Position numbers and translations under genes: made by a program
Shown: positions 4,638 to 34,828 of the stretch, one piece after another
Numbering within the stretch: position 1 is the stretch's first letter
Layout of the letters: every line of letters begins with the position of its first letter
NCBI GenBank assembly: GCA_021513715.1
Contig: CP084167.1
Location: forward strand, 1,952,001 to 2,016,000
DNA length: 64,000 nucleotides
Direction of reading: 5' to 3'
Origin: Candidatus Heimdallarchaeum endolithica
GTDB lineage: Archaea; Asgardarchaeota; Heimdallarchaeia; Heimdallarchaeales; Heimdallarchaeaceae
The notes under the pieces: model-generated
Databases searched by the model: none
What the model was told of the DNA's origin: nothing
The model's input: only the letters and a program-made list of their open reading frames with translations

Positions 4638-4739
4638 TAGTTTTCTCCTCGTATATTCATAACTATGTTTTTGACAACGACTCTAAAACCCTTTTTTTGT
4701 TTTGTTATTTAATATTTTTTTTTCAAACAGATTATATAC

Positions 4740-5749
4740 TGTATACTCAACTCACATTGGTAACAAATAAATAGAAGTGGGTTACGTGGGTAAGTGATAT
4801 ATTATGAACAAAAACGAACGTAACCTGGAGAAACTAAGAAAGATTGTGGTTAAAAAAGCTTTGGAAGGAGAGAAGATAAAAGAAGTAGCTCACAAGTATA
4901 TGGTGAGTAGGAAGTTTGTGTATAAGTGGTTGAAGAGGTTCAGAGAGAACCCTGAAGGAGTATGGTGGAAAGATAGATCTTCCAGACCAAAAACTATACA
5001 CAGGAAAGTAGATGAGGAGTTAAAAGAGAGGATAAGGGAGTTAAGAATAAAACAAGGAATGAATGTGGAGAAGATAGCTTATTTGTTGAAGAGAGAAGGA
5101 AAAGCACTCTCTCAGACGACAGTGACGAAAGTAATAAAAGAGTTAGGTCTTCCTTTATGGGTTAATAGAAAAAAGAGGAAAAGACCTCGATACAAGAGTT
5201 TTGAACGTCAAAAACCTAACGAACTCTGGCAAATAGATGTGAAAGGACCATTCTGGGTAGAAGAACAGGGACAACATCTCCACCTCATAACCTTGATAGA
5301 CGACCACTCACGATTCTGTCTGGGAGCTGAATTCCACCCTTTTGCACCAAAAAAAGAGCAGATAATAAGTTTGCTAGAGGAAGCAATAAAAGAGTACGGT
5401 TACCCCGAGTCTATACTTACTGACAATGGAGCACTCTTCTCTTCCGTTAGAGGAGGAACAAGTACCTTCTCCCGTTGGTGTCAAACAGAAGGAATAAAGC
5501 ACATCAGAGCTAGAGTTTTTCACCCCGAAACATGTGGAAAAGTAGAAAGACTACATGGGACAATCATCCGTGAGATGGAAAGATTAGGTCTAAAATACTG
5601 CAACGCAGATCTCTCCTACTACCGCTCTTACTACAATTTTAGTCGTCCTCACCAATCTCTTAACTTCCTCACCCCAGGAGAAAGATTTATGAATCACCCC
5701 TATGTTTCTCTAGTACCCAAAAGTGTAACCCAAGTCTATTGAGTAAACA
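4740..5749 (+). mobile_element. IS481-family insertion sequence, intact copy (1010 bp)
   Basis: Terminal inverted repeats TGTATACTCAA / TTGAGTAAACA; 16-bp direct repeat CAAACAGATTATATAC at 4724-4739 and 5750-5765. Confidence 0.93.
4804..5742 (+). CDS. IS481-family DDE transposase (HTH + rve integrase core)
   Basis: WQIDVKG, IDDHSR, TDNG, GKVERLHGT and YNFSRPHQSL motifs. Confidence 0.95.
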   Translation: MNKNERNLEKLRKIVVKKALEGEKIKEVAHKYMVSRKFVYKWLKRFRENPEGVWWKDRSSRPKTIHRKVDEELKERIRELRIKQGMNVEKIAYLLKREGKALSQTTVTKVIKELGLPLWVNRKKRKRPRYKSFERQKPNELWQIDVKGPFWVEEQGQHLHLITLIDDHSRFCLGAEFHPFAPKKEQIISLLEEAIKEYGYPESILTDNGALFSSVRGGTSTFSRWCQTEGIKHIRARVFHPETCGKVERLHGTIIREMERLGLKYCNADLSYYRSYYNFSRPHQSLNFLTPGERFMNHPYVSLVPKSVTQVY

Positions 5750-5838
5750 CAAACAGATTATATACAAAAATGTTTTACAAAAACAAGAGAGAAATAATAA
5801 AAAGATTGAACGATATAAAAATTAAAAAAATTTCTTAT

Positions 5839-6033
5839 TTAAGGTTTATATTTTCTCATTTTCTCCATTCCTTTCAAAACCTTAACAACTTTGTAAATTT
5901 GCTCAATTTCTCTTACACTTGAACGGGGTTTAGATGTAAGAATATTTTCATAATTCCAGATTTTCCTTTCTGGATTATCTTTTAGATTAACAACGGGGAT
6001 TGTAGAAACATCTTTTCTAATTTCTTTGGACAT
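5839..6033 (-). CDS. Hypothetical small protein
   Basis: 64-aa ATG-initiated ORF filling an intergenic gap; no recognisable motif. Confidence 0.45.
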   Translation of the reverse strand: MSKEIRKDVSTIPVVNLKDNPERKIWNYENILTSKPRSSVREIEQIYKVVKVLKGMEKMRKYKP

Positions 6034-6314
6034 AATATCATATTAAACTCGTGGTTATGTTTATTTCATACTACGTAATACTAAGGAAATATTCAAAACA
6101 AAACAAGAGATAACCCTAGTACAACCATTAGGAGAAATATCAGAAAAAATGAACTCAAATCGAACCACCAATTATTGGATTTATTGTCGAGAGAATAGCT
6201 GAGATAATAAGAAATTATAAATACCAGATACTCCATTATTATTTAGAACTATTTCTCTTTCAGAGAAAGAAATAAATATTATTGAAAATAAAAAAAAACG
6301 AGGATATTGGTATC

Positions 6315-7178
6315 ATGTCAATCTTAGATTGGATAGACAAACTTCCACCACTAATTGAAGATAATGGACTGAAATTATTAATTTATCTCATTATTATTTT
6401 TGCAATAATTACAGCAGTAATAGTTCACTTTTCAACAAAGGGAGAATATCGTTCATCAGGAGGACTAACATTAAAGGAACTTGATTTTGATATTAGTCGG
6501 CCCATTTCAGATATAGCACCAGAAGAAAGAATTGAAATATTAAAAATTGAAAAGGAAAAATTTATAGCTGCTCGCAAAGCGCTAACTGACTCCTACAAAC
6601 GCAAGAAATTAAGTGACACTATTTTTGAAAGACTATCAGTAAGGTATGCTTCAGATCTCAAGAAAATAGAAGATGAAATTGAGAGAACAGAAAAAGAAGC
6701 AGAAGTTAGTCAGTTAGAAGAAGAATTAAAGAAAATGCAAGGAGACTATCTAGCAAAAATTGCTGGAGAAACAAAGGTTGAAACAACACCTTCTACTGCG
6801 CCAACAACTCCACCACCGTCAGCACCAACTGCACCAACACCAACCCCTGTAGCTCCATCCAAAACAGTAACTCCACCAACACCAACAACACCAACTGCAC
6901 CAACACCAACCCCTGTAACTCCACCCAAAACAGTAACTCCACCAACACCAATAACACCAACTGCACCAACACCAAGCACATCGGCTCCAATACCAGCACC
7001 GATAAAACCACCGGCCTCTGTAGCACAAACAACCCCTCAAGCACCAGTAGACACTAGTTCAGGAACAGATGATCAAGGGGATTTATTTGCAAAAAGCACA
7101 TCTATTGCCGCTTTAAGAAAAGAGATGTTGAAAGAGTTAGATCGCCTAAAAGCATTTATGTCTGAACAAAATAAATGA
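6315..7178 (+). CDS. Single-pass membrane protein with coiled coil, Pro/Thr-rich repeat linker and C-terminal amphipathic helix
   Basis: N-terminal TM ([17 protein letters not shown]), heptad-rich middle, PT-rich repeats, C-terminal [19 protein letters not shown]. Confidence 0.8.
6823..6975 (+). repeat. 66-bp tandem repeat (~2.3 copies) encoding a 22-aa Pro/Thr unit
   Basis: CACCAACTGCACCAACACCAA recurs at 6823, 6889 and 6955. Confidence 0.9.
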
Positions 7179-7251
7179 GATAAAAGTATACAACCATGTG
7201 TGTTTATTTTTTTTAATTAGCACACTTCTTTTTTGTTTTCGGTGATAAATT

Positions 7252-7974
7252 TTGCAATCTAAAAAGGAAATTGAAAAATATATGGCGTCTAAATATGTAG
7301 TAGACAATTTAATTTTCGACGATTTAATTGTTGGAGTTGGAACTGGCACTACAATAAACATTTTTATTGAATTGTTATCAGAAAAAGCAAACACAGATGA
7401 TTTAAACATTATTTGTATTCCTTCTTCTATAGAAACGAAATTACAATTAATCCAAAAAGGGCTTGTTGTCAGCGATATTATTGAAAATTCTGAAATTGAC
7501 ATTTATATTGATGGAGCTGATATCGTCACAGAAGATTATAATCTTATCAAAGGGGGCGGGGGAGCTATGACCATGGAAAAAATTTTAGCTTCATCTTCTC
7601 AAGAATTCGTTGTAATAGTAGATAGTGGCAAATATCCAAAAAAGCTTTTGTCATATCCTGTTCCAGTAGAGATTATACCTCTTGCAGTAAACACAGTGAT
7701 AAAACCACTATTTGACTTAGGAGGAGAACTTAAACTAAGATATGGAACTGGAAAGATCGGGCCTATTGTTTCTGATAATGGCAATGTTTTGGGAGATGTA
7801 ACTTTTAAAAAAGAATATGACCCAAAAATCATGGAAAAAGCAATTAATAATATCCCAGGAATAATTGAAAACGGTCTTTTTCCAGAAAAAGCGGATAAGA
7901 TTGTCATAGGAATAGATGATAGTGTCAAATATATCGAAATAAGAAGAAATAAAAAAAATGATTATCCTACCTAA
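7252..7974 (+). CDS. rpiA: Ribose-5-phosphate isomerase A
   Basis: GVGTGTT, DGAD, IKGGGGA..EK and VSDNGN motifs. Confidence 0.95.
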   Translation: MQSKKEIEKYMASKYVVDNLIFDDLIVGVGTGTTINIFIELLSEKANTDDLNIICIPSSIETKLQLIQKGLVVSDIIENSEIDIYIDGADIVTEDYNLIKGGGGAMTMEKILASSSQEFVVIVDSGKYPKKLLSYPVPVEIIPLAVNTVIKPLFDLGGELKLRYGTGKIGPIVSDNGNVLGDVTFKKEYDPKIMEKAINNIPGIIENGLFPEKADKIVIGIDDSVKYIEIRRNKKNDYPT

Positions 7975-9841
7975 CCAGAGCTGAAATAACAGCTCCCCGC
8001 TCATAAGCTTCTTTAAATAATGACCCAAGTTCTGAATTAATATTAAGTTTGATTTCAGCTGTTTTACCTACAGTTAAAGTTACAATGACCTCACCATTAA
8101 TCATGATATCAACATCTTTACCAACACATAAATCTGGAAAAACTAAAAAAATAGTGTTTTTACTTTGATATACATTAATTACATACTCTGCTTCTTCATC
8201 AAAACTATTATTTTGGTCAATATCATTCAATTCAGACATTTCTGAATAAGAGCGCACGTCAACGTTCAAATTTAGTGCAGATTCTATTTTTTCTATTGTT
8301 TTTCCTGACTTTCCAATTATTTTTGCTCTATCTGAATTGCGCACAAAGAGCGTGATAGAATTGGAATCAGTTATTTTAAATTCAAAATCATGGACACCAC
8401 TGTACTGTTTAAGTATTCTTTTTATTTTTTTTCTGCTAATAGCAACATGTTCATTCATTGAATGTGTTTGTTGCACTGGTGTTACTACAATTTGTTCTCC
8501 AAAAGTGTATAGTTCGTACTCTAGTTTATGAGAATGAAAATCTTTTACCTCAACAACAGGTCTACTCAAATCTCTCTCTTTTAATCCTGATGGAAGTTTT
8601 ACTTTTATTGAAAGTGTATATACCTTCCTTATTTCTCCATCTTCAATAAAAATTAGTGTGTCAATAATACTTGGAATCACTCCCAAATCAACTCGTTTAA
8701 TAAATCGTTTTACTCCATCAATTGCAGTAGTGCCATGAATAACGCCAATAAGTCCAATACCAGCCAACCTTAGGTCTGCATATGTCTCAAAATCAAGATT
8801 TTTCCTTAATTCATCATAGACAGTATGATCAGGTCTCATAAGTAAAATAAGGTCCGCTGTAGAAGAAATATCCCCCCTAAACCCACTTAGCTGAGTGATA
8901 CGATCATCGACTTGCAAATCCCTAGGATTTTCAAATGTTTTTACAATTCTACCTTTATCAGCGTAAAATTCAGCTAATGCTGTTGCGAAAGTGCTTTTTC
9001 CAGCTCCAGGAGCTCCAACAATTAAGATCCCTTCACTTTTTGTTTCAATTCTTTGTAACAATTTTCTATCAAGGTTATAATCCTCAATTTTTCTTTTTAA
9101 AATTGGTCTAACAGCAGTTATTTCCATAGCGTCACTAAATGGTGGACGAGTAATAATGATTCTCATGTTTTTTAGCTGCACAACTGTAAAACCTTGCATA
9201 TCACTTTCAATAAACGACTCTGGATCTCTGGTAGCTCTCTCAACTATCTCTTTAGCTAGTTCCTCAATTTCTTCTTTTTCAAGAACAGAGCCCCCAGTAG
9301 GTTGAAGATGAAAATTTCCAGGGGTACCTACTTTTGCAAGAGGTAAATTTCTTTCTCTTAAATGAACTGACATGGTTTGTTCAGTAAAATAATCATCAAT
9401 TCGTTTTCTTGGTTTTTCAGTTGTTTCTTTTAAAAAAACTACAGCCAATCCTTCAATCTCAGCAATATGAGCTTGAACTTTATCTGCAGTAACTAGAATA
9501 GCTGAATGTTCATATGCTAATTCCCGAATTTGGGCATCTAGTTCTCCAGAAGAGGCAAATTTGATTTGATTTGGTGTTGGTCGTGCGCCATCAATTATTA
9601 TTTCTATCATTCTTTCAGAAGCAAAATCCTTTAAGGCAACCAATTCTTCTAAAGCAGCTACACCAGTAGTTCTAGCTTGATTAGCTTGATGTTCTATTTC
9701 AGCAAGAACTACACGTGACAAAACAATTCTATTTATTGTTTGTTTTTTCTTTTTTAAATATTTTAAGAACTCTCCATTAACAATAACACTTGTATCAGGA
9801 ACAAATGAAACATTATTTTCTACATCAGACTGGTGATTCAT
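7967..9841 (-). CDS. PINA ATPase (PIN domain + P-loop ATPase + KH domain)
   Basis: N-terminal VPDTSV PIN domain; GAPGAGKST Walker A; DELR; KH motif IIGKSGKTIEKIE. Confidence 0.9.
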   Translation of the reverse strand: MNHQSDVENNVSFVPDTSVIVNGEFLKYLKKKKQTINRIVLSRVVLAEIEHQANQARTTGVAALEELVALKDFASERMIEIIIDGARPTPNQIKFASSGELDAQIRELAYEHSAILVTADKVQAHIAEIEGLAVVFLKETTEKPRKRIDDYFTEQTMSVHLRERNLPLAKVGTPGNFHLQPTGGSVLEKEEIEELAKEIVERATRDPESFIESDMQGFTVVQLKNMRIIITRPPFSDAMEITAVRPILKRKIEDYNLDRKLLQRIETKSEGILIVGAPGAGKSTFATALAEFYADKGRIVKTFENPRDLQVDDRITQLSGFRGDISSTADLILLMRPDHTVYDELRKNLDFETYADLRLAGIGLIGVIHGTTAIDGVKRFIKRVDLGVIPSIIDTLIFIEDGEIRKVYTLSIKVKLPSGLKERDLSRPVVEVKDFHSHKLEYELYTFGEQIVVTPVQQTHSMNEHVAISRKKIKRILKQYSGVHDFEFKITDSNSITLFVRNSDRAKIIGKSGKTIEKIESALNLNVDVRSYSEMSELNDIDQNNSFDEEAEYVINVYQSKNTIFLVFPDLCVGKDVDIMINGEVIVTLTVGKTAEIKLNINSELGSLFKEAYERGAVISALVR

Positions 9842-10404
9842 TTTTTAACATCCTCCTTTTCTTTCTTGATAATTGGAAACTCTAACGATTTTACAGAATA
9901 ATAGTTTACATCACCCAAACTATCAATTACTGCAAAAATTAAACTTAATCCCATATCATCTGCCCTTGATACTATTTTTTCAATTTGATCTATGTTAAAC
10001 ATTACTCCTTCAACAAAAGGGACAATTAAAGCATATTTAGTTTCCTTTTCTTTATTAGAAGAAGCTCCCCTTTCATACAAGGTAAAGAAGTTATGTGTCT
10101 TTTCATATTTTTTCACAACATATCCGCGTCCTCTTAAATCCTTGAACAACAGATAATAAACCAAAAACCCAGGAAATACTTTTGAGAAATAAGAAATTAA
10201 TTCTGGCAAAGATAATTCCTTGTCTAATTCATTAACAACAATTATCCGTTTTCTCTCCATCAACAAAACAGCTTCATAAGGTTCTAGGATAAGGTGGCCA
10301 TCGTCTGATAATTCACCATACCAACCTGTGCTGTAAAGATCGTTAGCTATTTTTGTATCATAAATCACTACTTGATTTCCAACTACTTTGGCATTGAAAG
10401 ACAT
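9838..10404 (-). CDS. endA: tRNA-splicing endonuclease subunit, probably non-catalytic (structural/beta type)
   Basis: EndA fold motifs (LEPYEA, DLRGRGYVVK, LYERG, AVIDSLGDVNYY); catalytic His and Lys are not conserved. Confidence 0.8.
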   Translation of the reverse strand: MSFNAKVVGNQVVIYDTKIANDLYSTGWYGELSDDGHLILEPYEAVLLMERKRIIVVNELDKELSLPELISYFSKVFPGFLVYYLLFKDLRGRGYVVKKYEKTHNFFTLYERGASSNKEKETKYALIVPFVEGVMFNIDQIEKIVSRADDMGLSLIFAVIDSLGDVNYYSVKSLEFPIIKKEKEDVKK

Positions 10405-10487
10405 TTTTATGTCAACAACGTAATGAAATAATTATTAAGTATTTATACATTCGACTAAATGAAGAAGCAAGGAAATTGTGAAGTTTA

Positions 10488-14269: not shown

Positions 14270-16096
14270 TTACAGTACTGTTACACTTTTAGCGAGGTTT
14301 CTTGGTTTGTCAGGCGAGTATCCTCTCTTTACTGCAGTATAATAAGCTAGCAATTGTAGGGGAACAACATATGGAATTGTTGAGAATATTTCAGAGTACC
14401 CTTGAGGAATTTTAAAACTCCAAGTTACAAGGTTTTTTATTTCATCATCATTTTCTTCAATAACACCGATAGTAGATGCGCCTCTAGCATTCATTTCCAT
14501 AATATTAGATTGAATCAGCCTATAGGTGTGATCCTTTGGTGCAATAAATACAACAGGAAAATCTTTTTCTACCAAGGCGATTGGACCATGTTTTGATTCT
14601 CCAGCTGGATATGATTCACAGTGAATGTAAGATATCTCTTTCATTTTCAAAGCTCCTTCATTTGCTGTTTGCACATTTATTCCACGCGCTAAATAAAAAC
14701 CACTTTTCTTTTTCGAAAACCAGTTAGCAACTGTTCTAGCTTGAACTTCATTGTTTGTAATAGTTGTTTTAACTATTTTTGGGAGCTGATTGAATTTTTT
14801 TCTGTGAGATTCATACTCTGTTTTATTAAAAGAACCACTTAAAAGCCCTAGTTCTAATCCTACATCCCAGTTAGCTATTGTTTGTGCAAGATATGTTTTT
14901 GTTGCTGCGACTCCAATCTCAGGCCCTGCGTGGAGATATATAACCTCATCTGAATATCTAGTAATTGTACTACCTACCACATTTACTATAGAGAGAATCG
15001 ATGCACCTTGTTCTTTAGCTTTTTTAATACCTAAAATTGTATCCATTGTTTCTCCAGATTGACTCACAGGAACTACAACTGTATTCTCATCAATTAAATT
15101 TAAAATTGATTCAAATTCAGAAGCAATTATTGACTGACTTAGTTTTTTATTAAATTTTCTTACTAAATACTCTCCAGTTAATGTTGAATAATATGCTGTT
15201 CCTGCAGCAACAAAAAAAATTCTTTCTGCTACATAAATTTTTTCAGCTACCTTTTTTACAGATTTTTGTTTCATTCGGACATAGTTATACAAAGAATTAG
15301 GTTGTTCATGGATTTCTTTTAACATAAAATGCGGATAACCTGCTTTTTGAGCCATTTCTGCTTTCCAAGAAACAGTATAGGGAGCACGTGTTATCTGTTC
15401 CATAGATATCAGATTAAAAATGTTATACCCATCACTTCTTATCTCTACAAACTCATTGTCGTGTAAGAGTACAACTTGTTGAGTTTGATCAAGAAATGCA
15501 GGAATGTCGCTAGCAACGAAGATTCTATTTGAATTCAAGCCTATTACTAATGGGCTGTCCTTTTTGGCACAATAAATTCTTTGAGGAGCATTCGTACTTA
15601 TTACACAAATTGCATATGTCCCTACTAGCTGTTTTATAGCCTTAATTACAGCTTCACGGAAACTCAAGTGCTCATTAACAAAAAAATCTTCAATCAAGTG
15701 ACTGATTACTTCTGTATCAGTCTCAGAACTGAATGTATGCCCCTTTTCTTTTAAATTACGTCTTAATTCCTGAAAATTTTCAATAATCCCATTATGAACA
15801 ACGGCTATTTTTCCATCGCAACTAACATGAGGATGAGCATTTATTTTTGAAGGTGGACCATGTGTAGCCCAACGTGTGTGTCCGATTGCAATCTTGCCAG
15901 ATATAGGGGCGATATCAATTTTTTCTATTACTTCATTTATTTTTCCTTTATCTTTTTGAATAATAAGTTTGTCATCTTCTATAATTGCAACCCCTAAACT
16001 ATCATATCCCCTATACTCCAATTTTTGAAGAGCATGGATAATTTCTTCACCGATTTTTGTCTCATTTTTTTGAATTATTCCTACAATTCCACACAT
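14270..16096 (-). CDS. glmS: Glutamine-fructose-6-phosphate transaminase
   Basis: MCGIVG, LEYRGYDS, GHTRWATHG, SQSGET and PRNLAKSVT motifs. Confidence 0.97.
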   Translation of the reverse strand: MCGIVGIIQKNETKIGEEIIHALQKLEYRGYDSLGVAIIEDDKLIIQKDKGKINEVIEKIDIAPISGKIAIGHTRWATHGPPSKINAHPHVSCDGKIAVVHNGIIENFQELRRNLKEKGHTFSSETDTEVISHLIEDFFVNEHLSFREAVIKAIKQLVGTYAICVISTNAPQRIYCAKKDSPLVIGLNSNRIFVASDIPAFLDQTQQVVLLHDNEFVEIRSDGYNIFNLISMEQITRAPYTVSWKAEMAQKAGYPHFMLKEIHEQPNSLYNYVRMKQKSVKKVAEKIYVAERIFFVAAGTAYYSTLTGEYLVRKFNKKLSQSIIASEFESILNLIDENTVVVPVSQSGETMDTILGIKKAKEQGASILSIVNVVGSTITRYSDEVIYLHAGPEIGVAATKTYLAQTIANWDVGLELGLLSGSFNKTEYESHRKKFNQLPKIVKTTITNNEVQARTVANWFSKKKSGFYLARGINVQTANEGALKMKEISYIHCESYPAGESKHGPIALVEKDFPVVFIAPKDHTYRLIQSNIMEMNARGASTIGVIEENDDEIKNLVTWSFKIPQGYSEIFSTIPYVVPLQLLAYYTAVKRGYSPDKPRNLAKSVTVL

Positions 16097-16185
16097 TTTT
16101 TTCCCTATTAAAGCAACATTAACTGTTTTTTACTCAAGAACAGTCAATTAATGTTATTCATAAAGGTTTCGCTATACAAATTAAG

Positions 16186-17204
16186 TGTATACTCCACTCA
16201 CATTGGTAACAAATAAATAGAAGTGGGTTACGTGGGTAAGTGATTAAATATGAATAAGACCGAACGTAACCTGGAGAAACTAAGAAAAATTGTAGTTAAA
16301 AAAGCTTTGGAAGGAGAGAAGATAAAAGAGATAGCTCACAAGTATATGGTGAGTAGGAAGTTTGTGTATAAGTGGTTGAAGAGGTTCAGAGAGAACCCTG
16401 AAGGAGAATGGTTGGTGGAAAGATAGATCCTCCAGACCAAAAACTATACACAGGAAAGTGGATGAGGAGTTAAAAGAGAGGATAAGGGAGTTAAGAATAA
16501 AACAAGGAATGAATGTGGAGAAGATAGCTTATTTGTTGAAGAGAGAAGGAAAAGCACTCTCTCAGACGACAGTGACGAAAGTAATAAAAGAGTTAGGTCT
16601 TCCTTTATGGGTCAATAGAAAAAAGAGGAAGAGACCTCGATACAAGAGTTTTGAACGTCAAAAACCTAACGAACTCTGGCAAATAGATGTGAAAGGACCA
16701 TTCTGGGTAGAAGAACAGGGACAACATCTCCATCTCATAACCTTGATAGACGACCACTCACGATTCTGTCTGGGAGCTAAATTCCACCCTTTTGCACCAA
16801 AAAAAGAGCAGATAATAAATCTACTAGAGGAAGCAATAAAAGAGTACGGTTACCCCGAGTCTATCCTCACGGACAATGGAGCACTCTTCTCTTCCGTTAG
16901 AGGAGGAACAAGTACCTTCTCCCGTTGGTGTCAAACAGAAGGAATAAAACACATCAGAGCTAGAGTTTTTCACCCCGAAACATGTGGAAAAGTAGAAAGA
17001 CTACATGGGACCCAACAATCATCCGTGAGATGGAAAGATTAGGTCTAAAATACTGCAACGTAGATCTCTCCTACTACCGCTCTTACTACAATTTTAGTCG
17101 TCCTCACCAATCTCTTAACTTCCTCACCCCAGGAGAAAGATTTATGAATCACCCCTATGTTTCTCTAGTACCCAAAAGTGTAACCCAAGTCTATTGAGTA
17201 AACA
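16186..17204 (+). mobile_element. IS481-family insertion sequence, second copy (1019 bp)
   Basis: Near-identical to 4740-5749 with the same IRs; 14-bp direct repeat CTATACAAATTAAG at 16172-16185 and 17205-17218. Confidence 0.93.
16250..17197 (+). pseudogene. Frameshifted IS481 transposase
   Basis: +4-bp insertion near 16410 and +5-bp insertion near 17012 relative to the intact copy; split into ORFs 16458-17042 and 16982-17197. Confidence 0.88.
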
Positions 17205-17213
17205 CTATACAAA

Positions 17214-18338
17214 TTAAGTATCCAATAATTTTTTGAAATTTTTTAATAAACCATGTTTCTTTGCTAAAGTCTTTTTTAGCAAATCGATTCCTGTAATAAC
17301 TGTGGGGTCAATTTCATTTAGAAATGCTAAATATAAGCTAATATAATCAATAACATAAGTTAAAGTTAGTTGATGAGCAATTTTTGATTTCCCAAGCGCA
17401 TAAAGTTCAACAATTTTTTCTGTTTTTTTAGACATTATTCTTTTAGTAACTTCCACCCTTGTCTTTATCTCAGGTTGCTCATTTGGTAATCTTAATAGAA
17501 CCACAGAAATGTGGTTCATCACTTTCAAACTATCCCAAATAACAATACCATTATGGTTACTTTCGGGTAGGTTCTCATAACATGAAAGAAGTTTACTATT
17601 CTCGTTCAGTTGGCATTTAGCTCTATAGGAAACAGAAGAACAGTAAGAATTACTAATGAAAATGGGGGTTGAATTATAAAGAAATAAAGAAAATTTCTTA
17701 GCTTGATTTTGACTACTAGATACTTCAGGAGATAATTGTTCAGATAGATCTTTTAACAAAACTACTGATTCATCTAAAGCTTCATCAATATTTTTTATTG
17801 AAAAAACTTTTTCTAACACTTTTAATAATGAAACATAAATTAGAGGAAATGCAGTTCTTGGAGGTTGCCCTTTCCTTAATATCACACAAGGGATTCCAAT
17901 TTTCGATGAATATTCGCCTAAGATCCCACCAGAGGATATTGTAACAATCATTGACTTTTTTTCCAAAGCTTGATAGAAACAAGAAATTGTTTCTTCTGTG
18001 TTTCCAGAGTAACTAATACATATGACAAGTGTTTTTTCATCAACAAACTTAGGAAGTGAGTAATTTTTGTTTACGATGATAGGGATGTTGATTTCGTCCA
18101 TAAATAAATCAGAGATATAATCTGCTACAATAGCAGAACCACCCATTCCACAAATCAGGATTTTTTCTGGTTTTTTATAATAAACAACTTGATTTTTCCA
18201 TGAATATTTTTCAGGAATAGAGAAATCTTGTATTTTCTTTCTTAATTCTGTTATTGTAGAAGCCCAAGTGGATATCAACATTAGTTGATCAGATTTATCT
18301 AATTTTCTTAGTACGTTTATATCATCTAAGTCAATCAT
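17214..18338 (-). CDS. Bifunctional phosphoglucose/phosphomannose isomerase
   Basis: CGMGGSA, SYSGNTEET, QPPRTA, QLNENSK and PESNHN motifs. Confidence 0.92.
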   Translation of the reverse strand: MIDLDDINVLRKLDKSDQLMLISTWASTITELRKKIQDFSIPEKYSWKNQVVYYKKPEKILICGMGGSAIVADYISDLFMDEINIPIIVNKNYSLPKFVDEKTLVICISYSGNTEETISCFYQALEKKSMIVTISSGGILGEYSSKIGIPCVILRKGQPPRTAFPLIYVSLLKVLEKVFSIKNIDEALDESVVLLKDLSEQLSPEVSSSQNQAKKFSLFLYNSTPIFISNSYCSSVSYRAKCQLNENSKLLSCYENLPESNHNGIVIWDSLKVMNHISVVLLRLPNEQPEIKTRVEVTKRIMSKKTEKIVELYALGKSKIAHQLTLTYVIDYISLYLAFLNEIDPTVITGIDLLKKTLAKKHGLLKNFKKLLDT

Positions 18339-19399: not shown

Positions 19400-20215
19400 T
19401 TAGTAATCTTCGTCATCATATTCATAATCGTCTTCTTTTGCCACACTTTCAATTCTAGGGGCAAGCATATAATGCAAATAGCCTTTGTTTTCTAAATTGT
19501 ATTCCAAAATGATAGGCTTATTCGTTGCAAAACCAATAGTTAGTGTTTCAGAGGATCTAATACCCTTCATGAAATTATTTAAAAATTCAAGAGAGTAGGA
19601 AGATTCAGACTCTTCGATAATTTCAAAAGACTCTGCTTCTATTTCTTCACTTTCTGGCCCAACTACTGTTTCCATCTCATTAGAAAAACTTGTACAACTA
19701 AAGATTACTTTATCAGGAAGGGCATGTATTTTAAAATGATCACTTATCATCATCGAATCTTTCAACACTTGTTGAAAGAATGAAGCATCAATATTAAATT
19801 GCGCTGTTCTTAATATGTTCACTCTGTCAGGGGGTGGATTATCATCTTTAATATCAATCATTTTCAATGTAAAACTTCTTTCTCTGTTTTTTGCTTTAAA
19901 CACGATACGCAAGCGCTGTTCTTTTTCATCAAAATTCAAATTTAAAACTTCGTCCTTTTTTGCTGTTTTTATCATATTATTTAATGTCTCTAAGTTTAAA
20001 CCTAAAGAAAAAGTCTTGTCAACTTTAAATTCCTGGAAAGCTTCTTTTTTTAAAACAAAATCAAACATTGATATTCGTGTTGGATCAAAAGTTTTAATTT
20101 GAATATTATCGGTGTTGATGCTTAAAAAACATTCAGAAACAATTGAACTAATAATTGAAATATTACTAGCTAAAATTTTTGAATTTTCGTTATCAAGTTG
20201 TAATTCGAAACTCAT
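19400..20215 (-). CDS. pcn: DNA polymerase sliding clamp PCNA
   Basis: FDPTRISM, SYSLEFL, KPIILEY and YMLAPRIE motifs. Confidence 0.93.
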   Translation of the reverse strand: MSFELQLDNENSKILASNISIISSIVSECFLSINTDNIQIKTFDPTRISMFDFVLKKEAFQEFKVDKTFSLGLNLETLNNMIKTAKKDEVLNLNFDEKEQRLRIVFKAKNRERSFTLKMIDIKDDNPPPDRVNILRTAQFNIDASFFQQVLKDSMMISDHFKIHALPDKVIFSCTSFSNEMETVVGPESEEIEAESFEIIEESESSYSLEFLNNFMKGIRSSETLTIGFATNKPIILEYNLENKGYLHYMLAPRIESVAKEDDYEYDDEDY

Positions 20216-20303
20216 TGTATTTCCCTTAATTCAATTTATTACTATCTTCAGTCTATATGTAAAAAAACATTTAGCTATTTAAGGGAATCGTCGGTAGTTT
20301 ATT

Positions 20304-21065
20304 GGTAGTGTCTAGTTTTTATACCACCTCCTAGGCAAAAAGGAACTAAGGGGAGGATGTCCCAAGCTCTGATGAGGACGAACGAAATTATAATAGAGTA
20401 TAAAGAGTGTAAGGAAACCAGAAAGATGGGTAGAGCCATAGACGGCACGGATAGAACATGTGCATTGGAGAATAGAATGAAACCAACGATAGCTCTTAAG
20501 TGTGGCATTAAAACGTTCAATATAGGAGCGTAAACCACCATTGATAAAAGAGATTTTGATACCGAGACGAAGTAATACAGGATACCATACCCCTGCATCT
20601 GTAACGACAATACGAGGCTTAGAACCCCAACATTTGAACCAATAACGGAAAGTTAGTAAACATTCAAAATTACTCCGTCCTTTAGTAATACTAAAACCCA
20701 GTAAAGTCTTATTGTAAGGATCTAACGCGAACCACATATACATTGAGCCTTGAGAGGTCTTAATCTCTGTTTCATCAACTACTATAATCTCTGGTATTCC
20801 CCCTCTCTCTGCTACAACTCTATGTAAACTTTCCCTAAAGAGCCTGAACTTCTTTACCCAATACCATAGTGCCTGGTGTGTTAAACCATTCTTCCATCCT
20901 ACTGTCCTCAACCCATTCTTTGAACCAATATATTCATAAATAGCTCTTATGATTATCTTTTTGGGGACTCTGCTCCCTTTAAAAAGGGAGTATATTCTTA
21001 GTTTGTTCATATTTTCACATTAGAATCTCCAATAATATTTTTGTCGGGAGAAACTAGACACCACC
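20304..21065 (-). mobile_element. IS6-family insertion sequence (762 bp)
   Basis: IRs GGTAGTGTCTAGTTT / AAACTAGACACCACC; 10-bp direct repeat GTAGTTTATT at 20294-20303 and 21066-21075. Confidence 0.9.
20312..21010 (-). CDS. IS6-family DDE transposase
   Basis: VDETEIK..YMWFALD, VTDAG.WY, IERFNATLK and YYNFVRPHQSL motifs. Confidence 0.9.
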   Translation of the reverse strand: MNKLRIYSLFKGSRVPKKIIIRAIYEYIGSKNGLRTVGWKNGLTHQALWYWVKKFRLFRESLHRVVAERGGIPEIIVVDETEIKTSQGSMYMWFALDPYNKTLLGFSITKGRSNFECLLTFRYWFKCWGSKPRIVVTDAGVWYPVLLRLGIKISFINGGLRSYIERFNATLKSYRWFHSILQCTCSIRAVYGSTHLSGFLTLFILYYNFVRPHQSLGHPPLSSFLPRRWYKN

Positions 21066-21181
21066 GTAGTTTATTTAACAAAGAAGGTTAAAAATCAGAT
21101 ATTTATGCTCAATGTCTCTTTTTTTCTTTGGGTTTCTTATCTATTAAAAGAGTAAAGGAATTACCAAAAAAAGTGATAACA

Positions 21182-22774: not shown

Positions 22775-22776
22775 AT

Positions 22777-28865: not shown

Positions 28866-28911
28866 AAAGCAAAATACAAAAATTTTTGAATTTTTTCTTC
28901 TTTTTTAGAAT

Positions 28912-29421
28912 ATGAAACACGAACTAGAAAAAATAAGCCCATATTTATTTCCAAATCCCGCACTATTAATATCTTGTAAGAGTAGTAACAAAGAATCTAT
29001 AATCACACTTTCTTGGGTAGGGACAAGTTGTTCTGAACCACCAATGGTCTCTATCGGGATTCGTCCTACCAGATATTCGTACAATATTATAAAAGAATCA
29101 GGTGAATTTGTAATTAATGTACCAACTTCAGAAATGATAGAAAAAGTGAAATTTTGTGGAACAAAATCAGGAAAAGATGTTGATAAGTGGATGAAATGTA
29201 ATTTTACAAAAGAGAAACCTAGTAAAGTGAACACACCTTTAATTAAAGAATGTCCTGTAAATATTGAATGTACAGTAAAGAAAATTATTGAGTTAGGAAG
29301 TCATCATCTTTTTATTGCAGAGATTGTTGCAGTTCATATGGATGAAAATTGGAGAAAGAGTAAATATGAAGGAATGGTTACTTATTCTTTAGGTCAGTAT
29401 GGTAAAACAGTTCCACTGTAA
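28912..29421 (+). CDS. Flavin reductase family protein
   Basis: PPMVSIGIRPTRYS, GEFVINVP, CGTKSG and GSHHLFIAEI motifs. Confidence 0.9.
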   Translation: MKHELEKISPYLFPNPALLISCKSSNKESIITLSWVGTSCSEPPMVSIGIRPTRYSYNIIKESGEFVINVPTSEMIEKVKFCGTKSGKDVDKWMKCNFTKEKPSKVNTPLIKECPVNIECTVKKIIELGSHHLFIAEIVAVHMDENWRKSKYEGMVTYSLGQYGKTVPL

Positions 29422-29479
29422 CCAAAAAATGCACAAAATTTTTTACGATATGAAACTATTTTATATCATAGTGATTAAA

Positions 29480-29731
29480 ATGAACAAAGAAAAATATACA
29501 ACAGATATTTTGGACATAATGGCCACTCAAAAACGTGGTTTTAGTGTAGCTGATATAATGTTACAATTAAATACGCTTTATGCTCCCAGAGGAGAAAAAC
29601 CAGATCAAAAAGTAGTAGAAGAGGTACTCAATGAGCTAACAGAAAAAGGATATCTAAAAAGATTCACAGTCGGAATTATTCCACAGTGGAAAATTACAGA
29701 AGAAGGAGAAGATTATTTTTATAGTCTATAA
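29480..29731 (+). CDS. Small winged-helix protein
   Basis: LNELTEKGYL...WKITEEG wHTH pattern. Confidence 0.7.
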   Translation: MNKEKYTTDILDIMATQKRGFSVADIMLQLNTLYAPRGEKPDQKVVEEVLNELTEKGYLKRFTVGIIPQWKITEEGEDYFYSL

Positions 29732-29746
29732 ATGTGTGATGCAAGA

Positions 29747-30511
29747 ATGAGCTTTAAAAAAAACATTGGTTTACCAATGGAAAGTTTTGAGGAAGAGCTT
29801 TATTTTAATAGAGAACTAATTCATACAAAAGGATTAAGAGAGTTTTCTTTATCGGAAGTTGTATTTAGAGGAAAAAATAAAGAAGATGAAAAAGAAAAAA
29901 TAATTGTTTTCAAAAAATATCAAGATATTTTCCTTACTGAACATAAGCCACATTTTGATGATGTTCGATTTGATATTTTTGTTATGTTACCTGGTTTTCA
30001 TTCAGGTGAGTTTAACCATATTCCAGGCTATTATAGGAATTATGCAGACAATGGATTTCATTTTCCTGAGCTGTTTCAAGTTGTCGAAGGTTATGCAGAA
30101 TTTCTTCTTCAACAACCAGCTGAAAAACACGAAAAAGTAAAAGATTGTATTTTATACAGATGTCAAATTGGAGAAATAGTTACAATACCTCCGGCACATG
30201 GAGTAACAATAATCAACCCAACTGATAAAAAAACAGTTGTAATTCGACTTAGAGCTAGAGATGCAGAGTCTATCCATGAGCATTACAATATGACGAGAGG
30301 AGCATGTTATTACAGAGAACAAAATGACAAATGGATTTTTAATTCCAACTATGAAGAAATAGCAACAATGAAACTACTACCTACACAAAAAAAATGGAAA
30401 GTTTTTCAAAAAGAGATCCCAATTTACCAATCGTTTATCAACAACACATGGTCTCAAAAATTTCTACTGGAACCAAACCCTGTTGATTTCACAATAGATA
30501 CACTCATATAA
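29747..30511 (+). CDS. Cupin-type glucose-6-phosphate isomerase homolog (metal ligands degenerate)
   Basis: RFDI.VMLPG...GEF, PELFQVVEG.A.FLLQ, IPP....IIN and RGACYY match archaeal cupin PGI. Confidence 0.72.
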   Translation: MSFKKNIGLPMESFEEELYFNRELIHTKGLREFSLSEVVFRGKNKEDEKEKIIVFKKYQDIFLTEHKPHFDDVRFDIFVMLPGFHSGEFNHIPGYYRNYADNGFHFPELFQVVEGYAEFLLQQPAEKHEKVKDCILYRCQIGEIVTIPPAHGVTIINPTDKKTVVIRLRARDAESIHEHYNMTRGACYYREQNDKWIFNSNYEEIATMKLLPTQKKWKVFQKEIPIYQSFINNTWSQKFLLEPNPVDFTIDTLI

Positions 30512-30594
30512 AATAATTTTTTCTTTTTTCATCAACAGTTGAGAGCAAAATTAGACCATAAAAACTATACAATAAAATTGACAAATGTCAAATG

Positions 30595-30996
30595 TCATTT
30601 AAGTTTATTGAGAGTTTCCAACAAACTTTTTATTGCGTTATTAATAGAAATTATTTCATCTATGTTTTCAGAAATTTCTAGCTGCTTATTTAATTGACTT
30701 AATTTTTTCATGATTACACTTTGTGTTTCAAGTAGAGTTTCATGGGTAATATTACTACCATGCTGCGATATCTGGTACTGAGATTTGACTTGATTCGAGG
30801 ACATTTGCTTCCTTTGCTGTAATTTTGATTTTTCATCAACCAACACATATTCTTGTTTACATTTAACACAAATTATTTTACCACCATACTCATATAAGGG
30901 GGAATAGCATTTAGGACAAGCCTTGTTTAACATTTTTCCACCCTTTAATAATATATCTGCCCCTGCTTTTGAATAGTCATCAGAACTGTTGTTCAT
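30595..30996 (-). CDS. UPF0148 / Sjogren autoantigen p27-like Zn-ribbon protein
   Basis: LLKGGKML..ACPKC.SPL.....CVKC. Confidence 0.88.
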   Translation of the reverse strand: MNNSSDDYSKAGADILLKGGKMLNKACPKCYSPLYEYGGKIICVKCKQEYVLVDEKSKLQQRKQMSSNQVKSQYQISQHGSNITHETLLETQSVIMKKLSQLNKQLEISENIDEIISINNAIKSLLETLNKLK

Positions 30997-31092
30997 TAGT
31001 TTCTTGTTTTTTTTTTCATTATATAATATTTATTATAGAAAATAAAATTAGAATAAAATAATCTTCAATATACTAGTCTTCAATATACAATT

Positions 31093-32469
31093 TTATTTAA
31101 TCAGTTTTTCAAGCTTTTCAACTATGCTAGAGATCCATTCGAATTGTTCCTTTGTTGGAGCTTCGAAATAAATTCTAATTTTTGGTTCTGTCCCAGATTT
31201 TCTAATTAATATCCACGTCCCATCTTCAAAATCGAACCTTAAACCGTCAAAATCTAATACGTTCTTTTTATAGGGAGCACAGATTGTGGTTAAGTGATTC
31301 TTTAGTGAATTGAAAATAAGATTTGCATTTTCTTCTGAAACAAGGTAAGATCTTCTTTCTGAAAAAAAACTTGGAATTGATTTAATTTTAGTATAAAGAG
31401 AACAGTTTTTTTCCACCAATTCCTTCAAAATTACAACTGCACCAAATAATCCATCAATCCACAGCCCCCAATCTAAAGGAAATATTGGTTTCCATGGTTC
31501 AGCAGCAAAAATGACTCGTTCTCCATTATTAATTAACTCTAAAGACTTTGTATGAAGATCACCTAAAGGAGCTCGAATAACTTTAACAGAAGAGCTATCT
31601 AGTGAGTTATCTATACATGTTGACGAATCTATACTAAGGACAACAATACCACTTTTATTTGTGGTGAGAGATAACTGAGCTAACAAAGCATTTATTCTTG
31701 ATAGTTCCACAAAATTACCTTGTTCGTCAATAAATGAGACTCTATCCCCATCTCCATCATGAGCAATACCAATAGCACCTTTTTCTTTACATAAATTAAT
31801 AAGAACTGACAGATTTTCTTCACTTGGTTCAGCTAAACGACCAGGAAAACAACCATCAATATTAGAGTTGAGTGTAATTACATTAAATCCAAGTGTAGAA
31901 AAAATTCTTGGAGATAAAAGGCTCATCGGTCCATTTGCACAATCTACAATTAAAGTTCTATTATCAGCTTTAAAGTTTATTTTTTGAACAATAGCATTAA
32001 AATACTGATTATTAGCATCAATTATTTTTCTTTGATTTTTTATTTCATCCCAATTAGAATGAAAAATTTTATCAAAAAGTACTATTTCTTGTTCAAGTTT
32101 TTCTTGTTCTTTTTCTGTAAATTCTCTTCCAGTAAATAACAATTTAACTCCATTATATTCTGGTGGATTGTGAGAAGCTGTAATATAAATCCCTATTTTA
32201 TGCTCTAATTTTTGCGACATATATGCCATAACAGGAAAAGTGCATAACCCAACATCATACACTTGTGCACCATTTATTGATATCGTTGCTAATGCATATT
32301 GTGCTAATGATTCTGAACTAGTTCGAGCATCATGCCCTACAATAATTCCTTCATCAGGAAACATTTTAACTACAGCTTGACTTAATTTTATTATAAGATC
32401 AGCTGTAACTTTCTTTCCTAATAATCCTCGTATCCCTGCAGTGCCAAATAATTTAGTAGAAGTATTCAT
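31093..32469 (-). CDS. Phosphohexomutase (PMM/PGM/GlmM family)
   Basis: LFGTAGIRG, TASHNP, DGDGDR and RKSGTEPKIRIY motifs. Confidence 0.92.
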   Translation of the reverse strand: MNTSTKLFGTAGIRGLLGKKVTADLIIKLSQAVVKMFPDEGIIVGHDARTSSESLAQYALATISINGAQVYDVGLCTFPVMAYMSQKLEHKIGIYITASHNPPEYNGVKLLFTGREFTEKEQEKLEQEIVLFDKIFHSNWDEIKNQRKIIDANNQYFNAIVQKINFKADNRTLIVDCANGPMSLLSPRIFSTLGFNVITLNSNIDGCFPGRLAEPSEENLSVLINLCKEKGAIGIAHDGDGDRVSFIDEQGNFVELSRINALLAQLSLTTNKSGIVVLSIDSSTCIDNSLDSSSVKVIRAPLGDLHTKSLELINNGERVIFAAEPWKPIFPLDWGLWIDGLFGAVVILKELVEKNCSLYTKIKSIPSFFSERRSYLVSEENANLIFNSLKNHLTTICAPYKKNVLDFDGLRFDFEDGTWILIRKSGTEPKIRIYFEAPTKEQFEWISSIVEKLEKLIK

Positions 32470-32544
32470 TAATTAAATAAAAGTATAGTTCTTAAAAAAA
32501 TTACTAAAAAAGAAATAAGTGAAGAGGTTTATAATAAGATTGAA

Positions 32545-32949
32545 TTACCTGTAAGATTTTTGGAATCTTGAGCGAGCACTTGGTCCTCCAAAGTGCTTAG
32601 ATTCTGTTCTCCTTGGATCTCCAGAGATAATTGTTTTGTCATATGCAACAAATTTTTCTTTCAAAGTCTCATCTTCAAAGTAATTGACAAGACCACGGGC
32701 AATTGCAGTTCTTACTGCTTCTGCTTGACCCATGTATCCCCCTCCACGAACATTAACTTTGATATCTATCTTATCACGAATATCTTGTCCTGCAAGTATG
32801 AAAATTTCTTCAATTTTTATTCTTTGAAGTTCATTAGGTAGTACTTCAAGGGGGATACCATTAATTCTTACCCTACCTTTTCCTTCCTTTATTGTTGCAC
32901 GAGCGATTGCTGTTTTTCTTTTTCCAGACATTACTACAACTTTAACCAT
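32545..32949 (-). CDS. rps9: 30S ribosomal protein uS9
   Basis: SGKRKTAIARA, GGGYMGQA and ARSRFQKSYR motifs. Confidence 0.97.
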   Translation of the reverse strand: MVKVVVMSGKRKTAIARATIKEGKGRVRINGIPLEVLPNELQRIKIEEIFILAGQDIRDKIDIKVNVRGGGYMGQAEAVRTAIARGLVNYFEDETLKEKFVAYDKTIISGDPRRTESKHFGGPSARSRFQKSYR

Positions 32950-32962
32950 AATTATCACCAGT

Positions 32963-33430
32963 TTATTTTCCCCATCCAAACTCCTTACAAAGTTCACCTA
33001 CAGTTATATATTGACAAGTTAATTTATTCCCATCGGCATACTTTGGTTTAATAACTTCTTCAGTTTTAACAGTCTCTGGGATTCCAATATGTGTCAATAA
33101 TCGATGATAGGCAGATCTACCTTTTGGTTTCTTCATAGGCAACATCCCTCTTACCGTACGTCTTACGATTCTATCGGGTCTCTTTGGATGGAAAGGACCT
33201 CTACGAGGATTGGATAATGTGTGCTTTTTGTGCATATTTAATGTCTCTTTCAATATAGAAGCTTTCTTTCCTGAAATAATAGCTTTTTCGCAATTGATAA
33301 TGTCAACTTTATTTCCTTCTAAAAGCAATTTGGCAACTTCAGAACTCAGTCTACCAAGAATGGCATTCTCTGCATCTATTATTATTTTTTTCTGTGTAAA
33401 TTTTTTTATTTTTTCTGTCTGTTTCTGCAT
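32963..33430 (-). CDS. rpl13: 50S ribosomal protein uL13
   Basis: IDAENAILGRLSS and RRTVRGMLP motifs. Confidence 0.96.
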   Translation of the reverse strand: MQKQTEKIKKFTQKKIIIDAENAILGRLSSEVAKLLLEGNKVDIINCEKAIISGKKASILKETLNMHKKHTLSNPRRGPFHPKRPDRIVRRTVRGMLPMKKPKGRSAYHRLLTHIGIPETVKTEEVIKPKYADGNKLTCQYITVGELCKEFGWGK

Positions 33431-33440
33431 TTTGCACACC

Positions 33441-33806
33441 TTATACGATTATTTTCACCTTTTTTGGTTCAGGTGGATTCTTTATCAGTTCAGTTAGTGT
33501 CATCATTTTACTATTGGAATCAGCAATTTTAGCTTTTGCATTCTCTGAAAAGCGTAGTGCAGCAATAGTAACAGGATGGTCTAACACCCCAGATGATAAA
33601 ACAGAACCAGGAACAACTGCGATCTCGTCATTATTAACATAACGATTTATTTTACTTAAGTTCACAGTAGCCCTTTGTCTTCTGGGTTTCTCTAATTTTT
33701 CAGCAACTGTCTTCCAAATTTGAACGTCATGTTCAGAAGATAGTTTTTTTAACAAGTTGATTACTTCAATCAGATTTGAATCTGTTGGACCAGTTCTTTT
33801 TGGCAT
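33441..33806 (-). CDS. rpl18e: 50S ribosomal protein eL18
   Basis: VNLSKINRY and VVPGSVLSSG motifs. Confidence 0.96.
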   Translation of the reverse strand: MPKRTGPTDSNLIEVINLLKKLSSEHDVQIWKTVAEKLEKPRRQRATVNLSKINRYVNNDEIAVVPGSVLSSGVLDHPVTIAALRFSENAKAKIADSNSKMMTLTELIKNPPEPKKVKIIV

Positions 33807-33824
33807 GATTATCTCACTTTATTT

Positions 33825-34649
33825 TTATTCTTCTTCGCTTGTAGTGATTACTTCTAATTTGTTTTTTAATTCGTCGATTCTAGAGAGAAGTATCTCTCCA
33901 GCTTTTTCCATTAACTTAGATGGTGGCATACCATTGTTAATTTCGAAAGAAAAGATAATTTTAGAAGAATCATATTTTATTTGAACCCCCCCAGGTTCGG
34001 CAAAGTCAGTACAATAACCGCATAAGTTGCAATTAAGTAGATTTTCAACAGCCAATTTCCCATTTTTTACAGAAAATACATTACGGTAGCATGCATCTGC
34101 AACTTTCTTTGGATCTTTAATTTTCTCATGATCAATCTCAATTACAGGATAAAACTGATAACCCATTGCAGATACAGGTTGCCATTTAGCATGCTCTTTT
34201 CCTATGCCAAGCTGAGCCATGCATTCCAACTCTAAAGCTTGATTTGGACCAAGTTTTACTATTGGAATTTTACTGTTAATAGGTTCTACTCCCTCTTGGG
34301 AGGAAATAAGATCACCACTATATACTATAGCGGGTTCTTGGCTTGTTTCTTTTGAAATCGTTAAAGTCACAGTACAGAGATTACACCCTATTCCATTACA
34401 GTCACATTCATCTCTAAAGTTCAGTTCTAGGGTGTCAGCATCATATTTTAAAGGAATCAACCCTAATCTTTGAGCTATAAATTCATCGAAAAGAGGAGAA
34501 GTATTCTTTAACACATACACATCCTCAATAACAAGGGTTGGAACTTCAGCTATTGCTATTCTACGTATAGCATTGGCAAAAGCGATGCTAGTGTCTTCTA
34601 ATATAAACTTCACAGAATTCGGTAGTAATTCAATTATATCAATGTCCAT
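33825..34649 (-). CDS. rpoD: RNA polymerase subunit Rpo3 (D) with Fe-S domain
   Basis: ANAIRR...EVP, RLGLIPL, GKEHAKWQP and CNLCGYC motifs. Confidence 0.96.
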   Translation of the reverse strand: MDIDIIELLPNSVKFILEDTSIAFANAIRRIAIAEVPTLVIEDVYVLKNTSPLFDEFIAQRLGLIPLKYDADTLELNFRDECDCNGIGCNLCTVTLTISKETSQEPAIVYSGDLISSQEGVEPINSKIPIVKLGPNQALELECMAQLGIGKEHAKWQPVSAMGYQFYPVIEIDHEKIKDPKKVADACYRNVFSVKNGKLAVENLLNCNLCGYCTDFAEPGGVQIKYDSSKIIFSFEINNGMPPSKLMEKAGEILLSRIDELKNKLEVITTSEEE

Positions 34650-34725
34650 ATAGTGCCACCTAGTAAAGGTTCATCTATACGAACCCAATTATAATTATAA
34701 AAAAGGTTTTCCATCAACGTGTTTG

Positions 34726-34828
34726 TGTTCACTCACTGAAAATGGGTTATGCTTTCGGGAAATAGAGAAACGTAAGGGTGATTCATATTTTTTTCTTTAA
34801 CAATAAGAAAGTTTAGAGATTGGTGAGG
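34726..34828 (-). mobile_element. Degenerate IS481 right-end relic overlapping the tRNA-Leu 3' end
   Basis: Encodes PHQSLNFL......MNHPYVSL.P.S.T, colinear with the IS481 transposase C-terminus; ends in IR-like TGAGTGAACA. Confidence 0.85.

Follow-up and report, generated by a model that had tools for sequence, protein, structure and literature searches.

Why should copies of an insertion sequence (IS) be found immediately upstream of what look like the promoters of housekeeping genes, with those promoters left unbroken? The question is raised by four junctions in a 64,000-nucleotide stretch of the Candidatus Heimdallarchaeum endolithica genome (the window; positions 1,952,001-2,016,000 of a single 3.33-Mb contig, 30.8% G+C), where two copies of an IS481-family element, the relic of a third and a 762-bp IS6-like element lie beside the genes aRF1, glmS, rpoD and PCNA. 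A preliminary description of this DNA proposed that the transposases may be guided by TBP and TFB at the promoter, in the manner of Ty3 and TFIIIB. As discussed below, insertion of the IS481 element is indeed targeted, and the target carries a two-sided signature that the transpososome probably selects by reading the sequence or shape of the DNA directly.

The evidence that carries this answer lies in the targets themselves. The genome holds 25 full-length IS481-like copies, 20 of which are bounded by clean target-site duplications (TSDs) of 14-17 bp, most often 16. When the 20 restored targets were aligned in the orientation of the IS, T was found at 12-17 of the 20 sites over positions -6 to -1, directly left of the duplication, and A at 11-17 of them over positions +17 to +23, directly right of it, followed by T-T-T-W-T-A-T-A. 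The target as a whole is two-fold symmetric: a T-run, 16 bp, an A-run and a TTTAWATA-like box. Scored as T6/N16/A6, the insertion sites have a mean of 8.25, where four intergenic null sets give 4.4-4.9 (z 7.5-9), and the score is back at background once the frame is shifted by 4-6 bp.

The same constraint can be followed in single half-sites. A TATA-like word (TTTAWATA with at most 2 mismatches, its first base 5-11 nt outside the TSD) is present at 26 of 40 IS481 half-sites (65%), where about 25-30% would be expected by chance. A null of 200,000 simulations, in which half-sites were matched for the kind of gene end nearby and its distance, gave the following comparison:

A-run: 26 observed, 8.5 expected, p <5e-6, a count that no simulation reached
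TATA-like word with at most 2 mismatches: 26 observed, 12.2 expected, p <5e-6, again reached by no simulation
TATA-like word with at most 1 mismatch: 9 observed, 2.7 expected, p 0.001

Both flanks take part, the weaker of the two being A-rich at 10 of 20 sites where 19% would be expected (p 0.0016). At the 25 half-sites that face no start codon over the next 150 nt the signature is equally present (A-run at 16 of 25, TATA-like word at 15 of 25), and it occurs too on flanks facing stop codons or located within open reading frames (ORFs). Derived on this genome and then checked on 18 independent half-sites of Ca. H. aukensis, the signature is replicated in the second species, with A-runs at 67% against 19% (p 1e-5) and TATA-like words of at most 1 mismatch at 44% against 5% (p 1e-6). 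In the literature searched, no earlier account was found of promoter-proximal or A-tract targeting by archaeal IS481 elements.

The placement of the copies across the genome is equally far from uniform. Genes were taken from a simple dicodon-plus-Shine-Dalgarno caller of our own, which returned 2755 genes (87% coding) and recovered an AGGTGA motif upstream of the starts. In fourteen of the 25 IS481-like copies, an end falls 55-115 nt ahead of a start codon, a zone that is expected to receive 22% of copies if all intergenic positions are considered (p 3e-4) and 28% if genes and core promoters are spared (p 3e-3), giving an enrichment of 2-2.5 fold. In a control family, F0, 8 of 33 copies fall in the zone, which is the uniform expectation (Fisher p 0.014 against the IS481-like copies). 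The preliminary description had allowed that its pattern might reflect purifying selection acting on a uniform spread; the measured distances are non-uniform and the control family sits at its null, so selection alone is not the source of the clustering. IS481 insertion is targeted, not merely filtered by selection.

None of the 25 copies overlaps a called gene, though restoring the empty sites at genome positions 633272, 2353684 and 3075616 gives junction-crossing ORFs of 1209, 253 and 237 codons, and these three copies probably interrupt genes and do not lie upstream of promoters. The restored spacers are short, many of 84-210 nt, and the median intergenic length is 124 nt. At 8 of 20 sites neither end has a start codon within 125 nt, and in long tandem spacers three copies lie 33-46 nt past a stop codon beside oligo-T tracts while one is on the promoter side. 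No bias in spacer type was found: divergent, tandem and convergent spacers hold 10, 13 and 2 copies where about 7.9, 13.8 and 3.4 are expected (chi-square about 1.1), so there is no evidence that spacers without a promoter are avoided. Orientation relative to neighbouring genes shows no significant bias either, with 9 co-oriented and 4 anti-oriented copies in tandem spacers, the right inverted repeat (IRR) facing a 5' end in 18 of 25 copies and the left one (IRL) in 14 of 25. Sites of the T-run/N16/A-run type, for their part, are over-represented in two zones, one 40-85 nt ahead of starts and the other 25-70 nt past stops. Among motif-matched sites that spare genes and core promoters, 39-52% fall in the 55-115 nt zone, compared with 56% of the observed copies (p 0.07-0.41); motif and selection together are sufficient for the positional bias.

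Some of the IS481-like copies have rearranged surroundings. The one at genome 625001-626010 lacks a duplication, and its flanks are mutual reverse complements, so that the IS stands at the centre of a palindrome; a gene start lies about 44 nt away on one side, and the arrangement suggests an IS-mediated inverted duplication or inversion. At genome 46670 and 311444, the left end of an IS481-like copy meets that of another copy in inverted orientation (a head-to-head IRL-IRL junction), suggesting insertion into, or recombination between, IS copies.

The four junctions that prompted the question can now be set against this signature. The elements concerned are as follows.

4740-5749, plus strand: IS481-family copy 1, 1010 bp with TGT...ACA ends, the reference (100%) for the 25 full-length genome copies
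4804-5742: transposase of copy 1, intact, 312 aa, with Pfam rve and helix-turn-helix (HTH) domains
4724-4739 and 5750-5765: TSD of copy 1, 16 bp, an exact direct repeat touching both IS ends
16186-17204, plus strand: IS481-family copy 2, 96.6% identity to copy 1, with indels and a broken transposase frame
16172-16185 and 17205-17218: TSD of copy 2, 14 bp, exact
20304-21065, minus strand: 762-bp IS6-like element bounded by GGTAGTGTCTAG... inverted repeats and present in 10 full copies genome-wide
20312-21010: transposase of the IS6-like element, 232 aa
20294-20303 and 21066-21075: TSD of the IS6-like element, 10 bp
34726-34828, minus strand: IS481-family right-end (IRR) relic, the last ~100 nt of the right end, with its terminal base at 34726 facing rpoD

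Read on the minus strand, towards the genes, each element is followed by a promoter-like box, built from a putative TFB recognition element (BRE) and a TATA-like sequence, and then by a gene.

4706-4723, minus strand: putative BRE/TATA of aRF1, an A9-T run followed by ATTAAATA (4706-4713), 76 nt upstream of the aRF1 start
16157-16171, minus strand: putative BRE/TATA of glmS, CGAAACC followed by TTTATGAA (16157-16164)
20276-20293, minus strand: putative promoter of PCNA, CGACGATTCC followed by CTTAAATA (20276-20283)
34696-34709, minus strand: putative BRE/TATA of rpoD, AAACC followed by TTTTTATA (34696-34703), beginning 16 nt past the relic end
3372-4637, minus strand: aRF1 (Pfam)
14270-16096, minus strand: glmS (Pfam)
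19400-20215, minus strand: PCNA (Pfam)
33825-34649, minus strand: rpoD (Pfam)

All four junctions of the preliminary description are present in the sequence, and Pfam supports its identification of the neighbouring genes. Between the duplication, or the 16 nt adjacent to the relic, and the box proper (ATTAAATA, TTTATGAA, CTTAAATA or TTTTTATA) lie 5-10 nt. The suspicion that the boxes might not be real promoters found no support: when a BRE+TATA matrix is trained on promoter-like sites of this genome, each box is the highest-scoring match in the stretch from the IS to the start codon, ranking at the 99.9th (aRF1), 99.1st (glmS), 99.7th (PCNA) and 99.9th (rpoD) percentile of intergenic positions, and is the best promoter candidate available in its interval. 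This holds for the relic side as well, where the rpoD box stands as described, with a gap of 16 nt before AAACC. The A9-T run beside aRF1 is, on the plus strand, the T-run flank of the target motif.

The boxes can also be compared with Ca. H. aukensis. That genome has empty sites for copy 1, for copy 2 (once) and for the IS6-like element, and the promoter-side sequence is kept up to the TSD, bar one substitution in the aRF1 box; the glmS and PCNA boxes are conserved and the rpoD box is identical. The relic, whose end motif is GTGAGTGAACA, matches the inverted repeats of copies 1 and 2 (BLAST, 75% identity over 106 nt), and homology with Ca. H. aukensis breaks off there. The relic also lies between the rpoD promoter and the 3' end of a 101-nt tRNA at 34824-34924 (minus strand), which scores 41.8 bits with Rfam, was missed by ARAGORN and may contain an intron. 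The only trace of the copy 2 transposase in the ORF list is a 194-aa remnant. The right TSD of this copy (17205-17218) overlaps the stop codon of an SIS/PGI-like gene (17214-18338, minus strand); the glmS-PGI spacer measured ~84 nt before the insertion, and the duplication spares both that stop codon and the glmS promoter. Elsewhere in the window, an ORF at 6315-7178 (plus strand) has no Pfam match and contains, at 6803-7000, four tandem 66-nt repeats of 61-86% identity, rich in ACC and CCA codons; it looks like a low-complexity Thr/Pro-rich protein.

How closely do the insertion sites resemble the promoters of the genome itself? At likely real promoters, TTTAWATA begins 25-45 nt upstream of the start codon and the segment from -7 to -3 is enriched in A (45-55%), an enrichment that TATA-like words farther upstream do not have. 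A sharp TATA position relative to start codons was sought, and only a broad peak from -45 to -25 emerged, so that start-codon distance is a blunt proxy for promoters. The four boxes of the window, at -54 to -76 from their start codons, sit upstream of this main peak. At the insertion sites the A-run reaches 80% A, far stronger than the BRE of the genome (45-55% A).

Two further IS families show what is particular to IS481. Family F0 is unclassified, with elements of about 1005 bp that encode a 326-aa transposase and 33 copies in the genome, one of which enters the window:

63510-64000 (genome 2015510 onward): element of family F0

Its ends read AAGCATGTCC... (AAGCATGTCCAAAAATT...), and its TSDs are AT-rich and 6-8 bp long (TATATA and TAAATA, for example). 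The F0 flanks are A-rich, at 25 of 50 half-sites against 10.5 expected with a peak 5-8 nt outside the TSD, and their TATA-like boxes (11 of 50) are at the null level. The half-sites of the IS6-like element have TATA-like boxes at 14 of 20 and A-runs at 3 of 20. That each family has a pattern of its own is more readily explained by preferences of the individual transposases than by one host factor.

On this evidence, direct reading of DNA sequence or shape by the IS481 transpososome is the probable basis of target choice, and we infer that the transposase itself, not a bound host protein, reads the motif. The cuts would be staggered by 16 bp inside a spacer with an outward-reading A-tract of about 5-7 nt on each side, and past each A-tract would come a C/G-free stretch, T first, of the TTTAWATA type, so that the top strand of a target would read TATAWAAA, T5-7, N16, A5-7, TTTAWATA. 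The two outward A-tracts, set about three turns of the helix from each other on either side of the 16-bp stagger, would be read symmetrically, probably as intrinsically bent or narrow-groove A-tract DNA. In an AT-rich genome such sequences would occur mainly where an A-rich BRE abuts a TATA box or at oligo-T terminators; the 16-bp duplication would spare both of these neighbouring signals, and purifying selection would clear most insertions in genes and core promoters. Given such a motif, a duplication that spares the signals and selection, survivors would be expected to pile up about 55-115 nt upstream of starts, beside BRE/TATA-like boxes.

One rival is the explanation proposed at the outset, that TBP and TFB bound at a BRE/TATA recruit or position the transposase, with strand transfer at the upstream edge of the BRE as in Ty3 and TFIIIB. 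Several of the findings above speak for it, namely TATA-like boxes 5-11 nt past the TSD at 65% of half-sites against 25-30% expected, a half-site that has the BRE/TATA layout of the genome, boxes in the window that are top candidates and mostly conserved in Ca. H. aukensis, a 2-2.5 fold enrichment of copies in the promoter-upstream zone, and TATA-like boxes at 14 of 20 half-sites of the IS6-like element likewise. The anatomy of the sites nevertheless argues against it. The signature keeps its symmetry across a constant 16-bp spacing and is found also facing stop codons or far from starts; at 8 of 20 sites the nearest start codon is more than 125 nt from both ends; of the copies in long tandem spacers, three are by the terminator and one by the promoter; about three copies probably lie within genes; convergent spacers are not spared, with 2 copies where about 3.4 would be expected; the A-run far exceeds real BREs; and motif plus selection account for the positional bias. 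A symmetric and promoter-independent signature makes guidance by TBP/TFB both unneeded and a poor fit, and we consider it unlikely. Of the preliminary description, then, the promoter-adjacent targeting holds, as clustering beyond chance and selection, and guidance by TBP/TFB is not borne out by the sites. The likeness to Ty3 and TFIIIB fails both in its dependence on a functional promoter, given the sites without a nearby start and the terminator-side and probably intragenic copies, and in its one-sidedness, both flanks being constrained. A broader form, in which the IS481 transposase, with its retroviral-integrase-fold core, would be recruited by TBP/TFB on any BRE/TATA-like site, cryptic or bidirectional ones included, and would integrate at the upstream BRE edge, seems to us quite doubtful.

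Another possibility is that accessibility of the DNA decides, in that boundary spacers flanked by A-tracts would be free of histones or nucleoid proteins and would be favoured by any transposase. The A-rich flanks of F0 (25 of 50 against 10.5), which has other ends, 6-8-bp TSDs and another transposase, speak for this, as does the enrichment of T-run/N16/A-run sites 40-85 nt before starts and 25-70 nt after stops. The IS481 signature, however, follows the element's own 16-bp stagger with base-pair precision and includes a TATA-like component that is absent from F0 (11 of 50), the IS6-like element does without A-runs (3 of 20), and F0 shows no enrichment in the promoter zone (8 of 33). Such family-specific patterns are not expected from accessibility alone, to which we give little credence as the main cause.

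Purifying selection only, with random insertion and survivors confined to a neutral gap between terminator and BRE/TATA, would suit the 25 of 25 copies outside called genes (though about three seem to interrupt ORFs) and the short restored spacers (many of 84-210 nt, median intergenic 124 nt), but is very improbable and was rejected, because the null matched for neighbour type and distance fails, the score is phased to the TSD edges where selection would allow 16-bp TSDs to extend into the T- or A-runs, F0, which is subject to that selection too, follows the uniform null (8 of 33), and the same signature recurs in the probable intragenic copies and in Ca. H. aukensis.

Several points weigh against direct readout by the transposase. 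The IS half-site mimics the BRE/TATA layout of this genome; the pattern first described is therefore real, and a protein bound at such sites stays compatible with the sequence. The A-rich flanks of F0 hint at something on the host side, for instance chromatin accessibility, that both families share, and the observed clustering of 56% lies at the upper end of what motif and selection predict. Promoter position was judged by distance to start codons, and these came from our own caller. With 25 copies and 18 half-sites the sample is small, and both the zone of 55-115 nt and the motif windows (offsets 5-11) were partly set after inspection of the data, a choice whose effect is mitigated by the replication in Ca. 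H. aukensis and by the control family.

Within the IS481 family, the 1010-bp element is unexceptional and falls in the subgroup with 15-16-bp target duplications. Its transposase scores 234.4 bits over residues 15-295 with NCBIfam NF033577 (cut-off 224) and contains the Pfam domains rve, rve_3 and HTH_32/HTH_28. The architecture agrees, with one 312-aa ORF in 1010 bp and ends TGTATACTC...GAGTAAACA in 25 copies, as do the duplications of 14-17 bp (mode 16) in 20 copies, the range of the family being taken as 2-15 bp plus a subgroup at about 15-16 bp. TSDs of 15-16 bp with TGT...ACA ends are on record for archaeal IS481 members and for the eukaryotic IS481EU, and the discrete TSD lengths of this group have been tied to the degree of bending of the target DNA (PMC10045372). 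Near-identical IS481-like copies were found, in a scan of genome contigs, in Ca. H. aukensis PM71 only, plus one distant bacterial match. That strain was described alongside Ca. H. endolithica PR6 in a report that counts up to 27 copies of one transposase family per genome and is silent on target sites and promoters (PMC8813620).

The IS6 label given earlier to the 762-bp element is less secure. Its best NCBIfam model is IS6, at a sub-threshold 45.7 bits against a cut-off of 125, and Pfam returns DDE_Tnp_IS240 at only E 0.016, with weak rve and rve_3 matches. Members of the IS6 family have an 8-bp TSD, a length of about 0.7-0.9 kb and inverted repeats that start with GG. The size and the GG... 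inverted repeats of the present element fit that family; its TSDs, in 6 copies, are 9-10 bp and not 8.

How does this compare with known systems? With the archaeal ISMac4 and ISA0963-1 and the parabasalid IS481EU/Banshee, the element has in common a single ORF for an rve-type DDE transposase with an N-terminal HTH, a length of about 1 kb, TGT...ACA ends and 15-16-bp TSDs (PMC10045372), whereas the host here is an Asgard archaeon. For elements of this group, neither a T-run/N16/A-run plus TATA-like consensus nor clustering at promoters was found in the literature searched.

Weak palindromic target consensus sequences, and a preference for bendable target DNA, are known from Tn10/IS10, Mu and the integrases of human immunodeficiency virus (HIV) and prototype foamy virus (PFV). 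As with DDE transposases and retroviral integrases generally, the IS481 preference is two-fold symmetric and reaches past the staggered cuts, and the symmetry is consistent with a symmetric transpososome that reads or bends its target. Unlike in Tn10, Mu, HIV and PFV, the stagger is unusually long (16 bp) and the informative positions lie outside the duplication, in A-tracts followed by an AT-only segment. The element resembles Ty3, directed by TFIIIB (TBP/Brf1) to Pol III start sites, in that an rve-fold enzyme inserts close to a TATA-like element, at a constant short distance, and does not break the promoter. However, Ty3 targeting is one-sided and needs a bound transcription factor at a functional promoter, whereas the IS481 signature is two-sided and occurs also away from starts. 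Selection confines the copies to intergenic DNA, as it does bacterial IS elements. Plague is said to have found in 2010 that bacterial intergenic IS elements favour convergent or 3' regions; the IS481-like copies are instead enriched upstream of 5' ends (14 of 25), with 2 of 25 in convergent spacers.

If recruitment by TBP/TFB were true after all, transcription-factor-guided integration would be pushed back to the archaeal relatives of eukaryotes, and there would be an archaeal, Asgard-lineage counterpart of the factor-guided integration of Ty3 and other eukaryotic retroelements. The present results counsel caution before such claims of host-factor tethering, as sequence preference and selection can mimic promoter targeting in AT-rich archaea. 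What they provide, for a closed Asgard genome and its most active IS, is a concrete target-site rule (T-run, 16 bp, A-run, TATA-like box). It accounts for the copies that lie just upstream of the housekeeping promoters of aRF1, glmS and rpoD and leave these unbroken, and it has a practical use in annotating IS insertions and predicting insertion hot spots in Heimdallarchaeum genomes.

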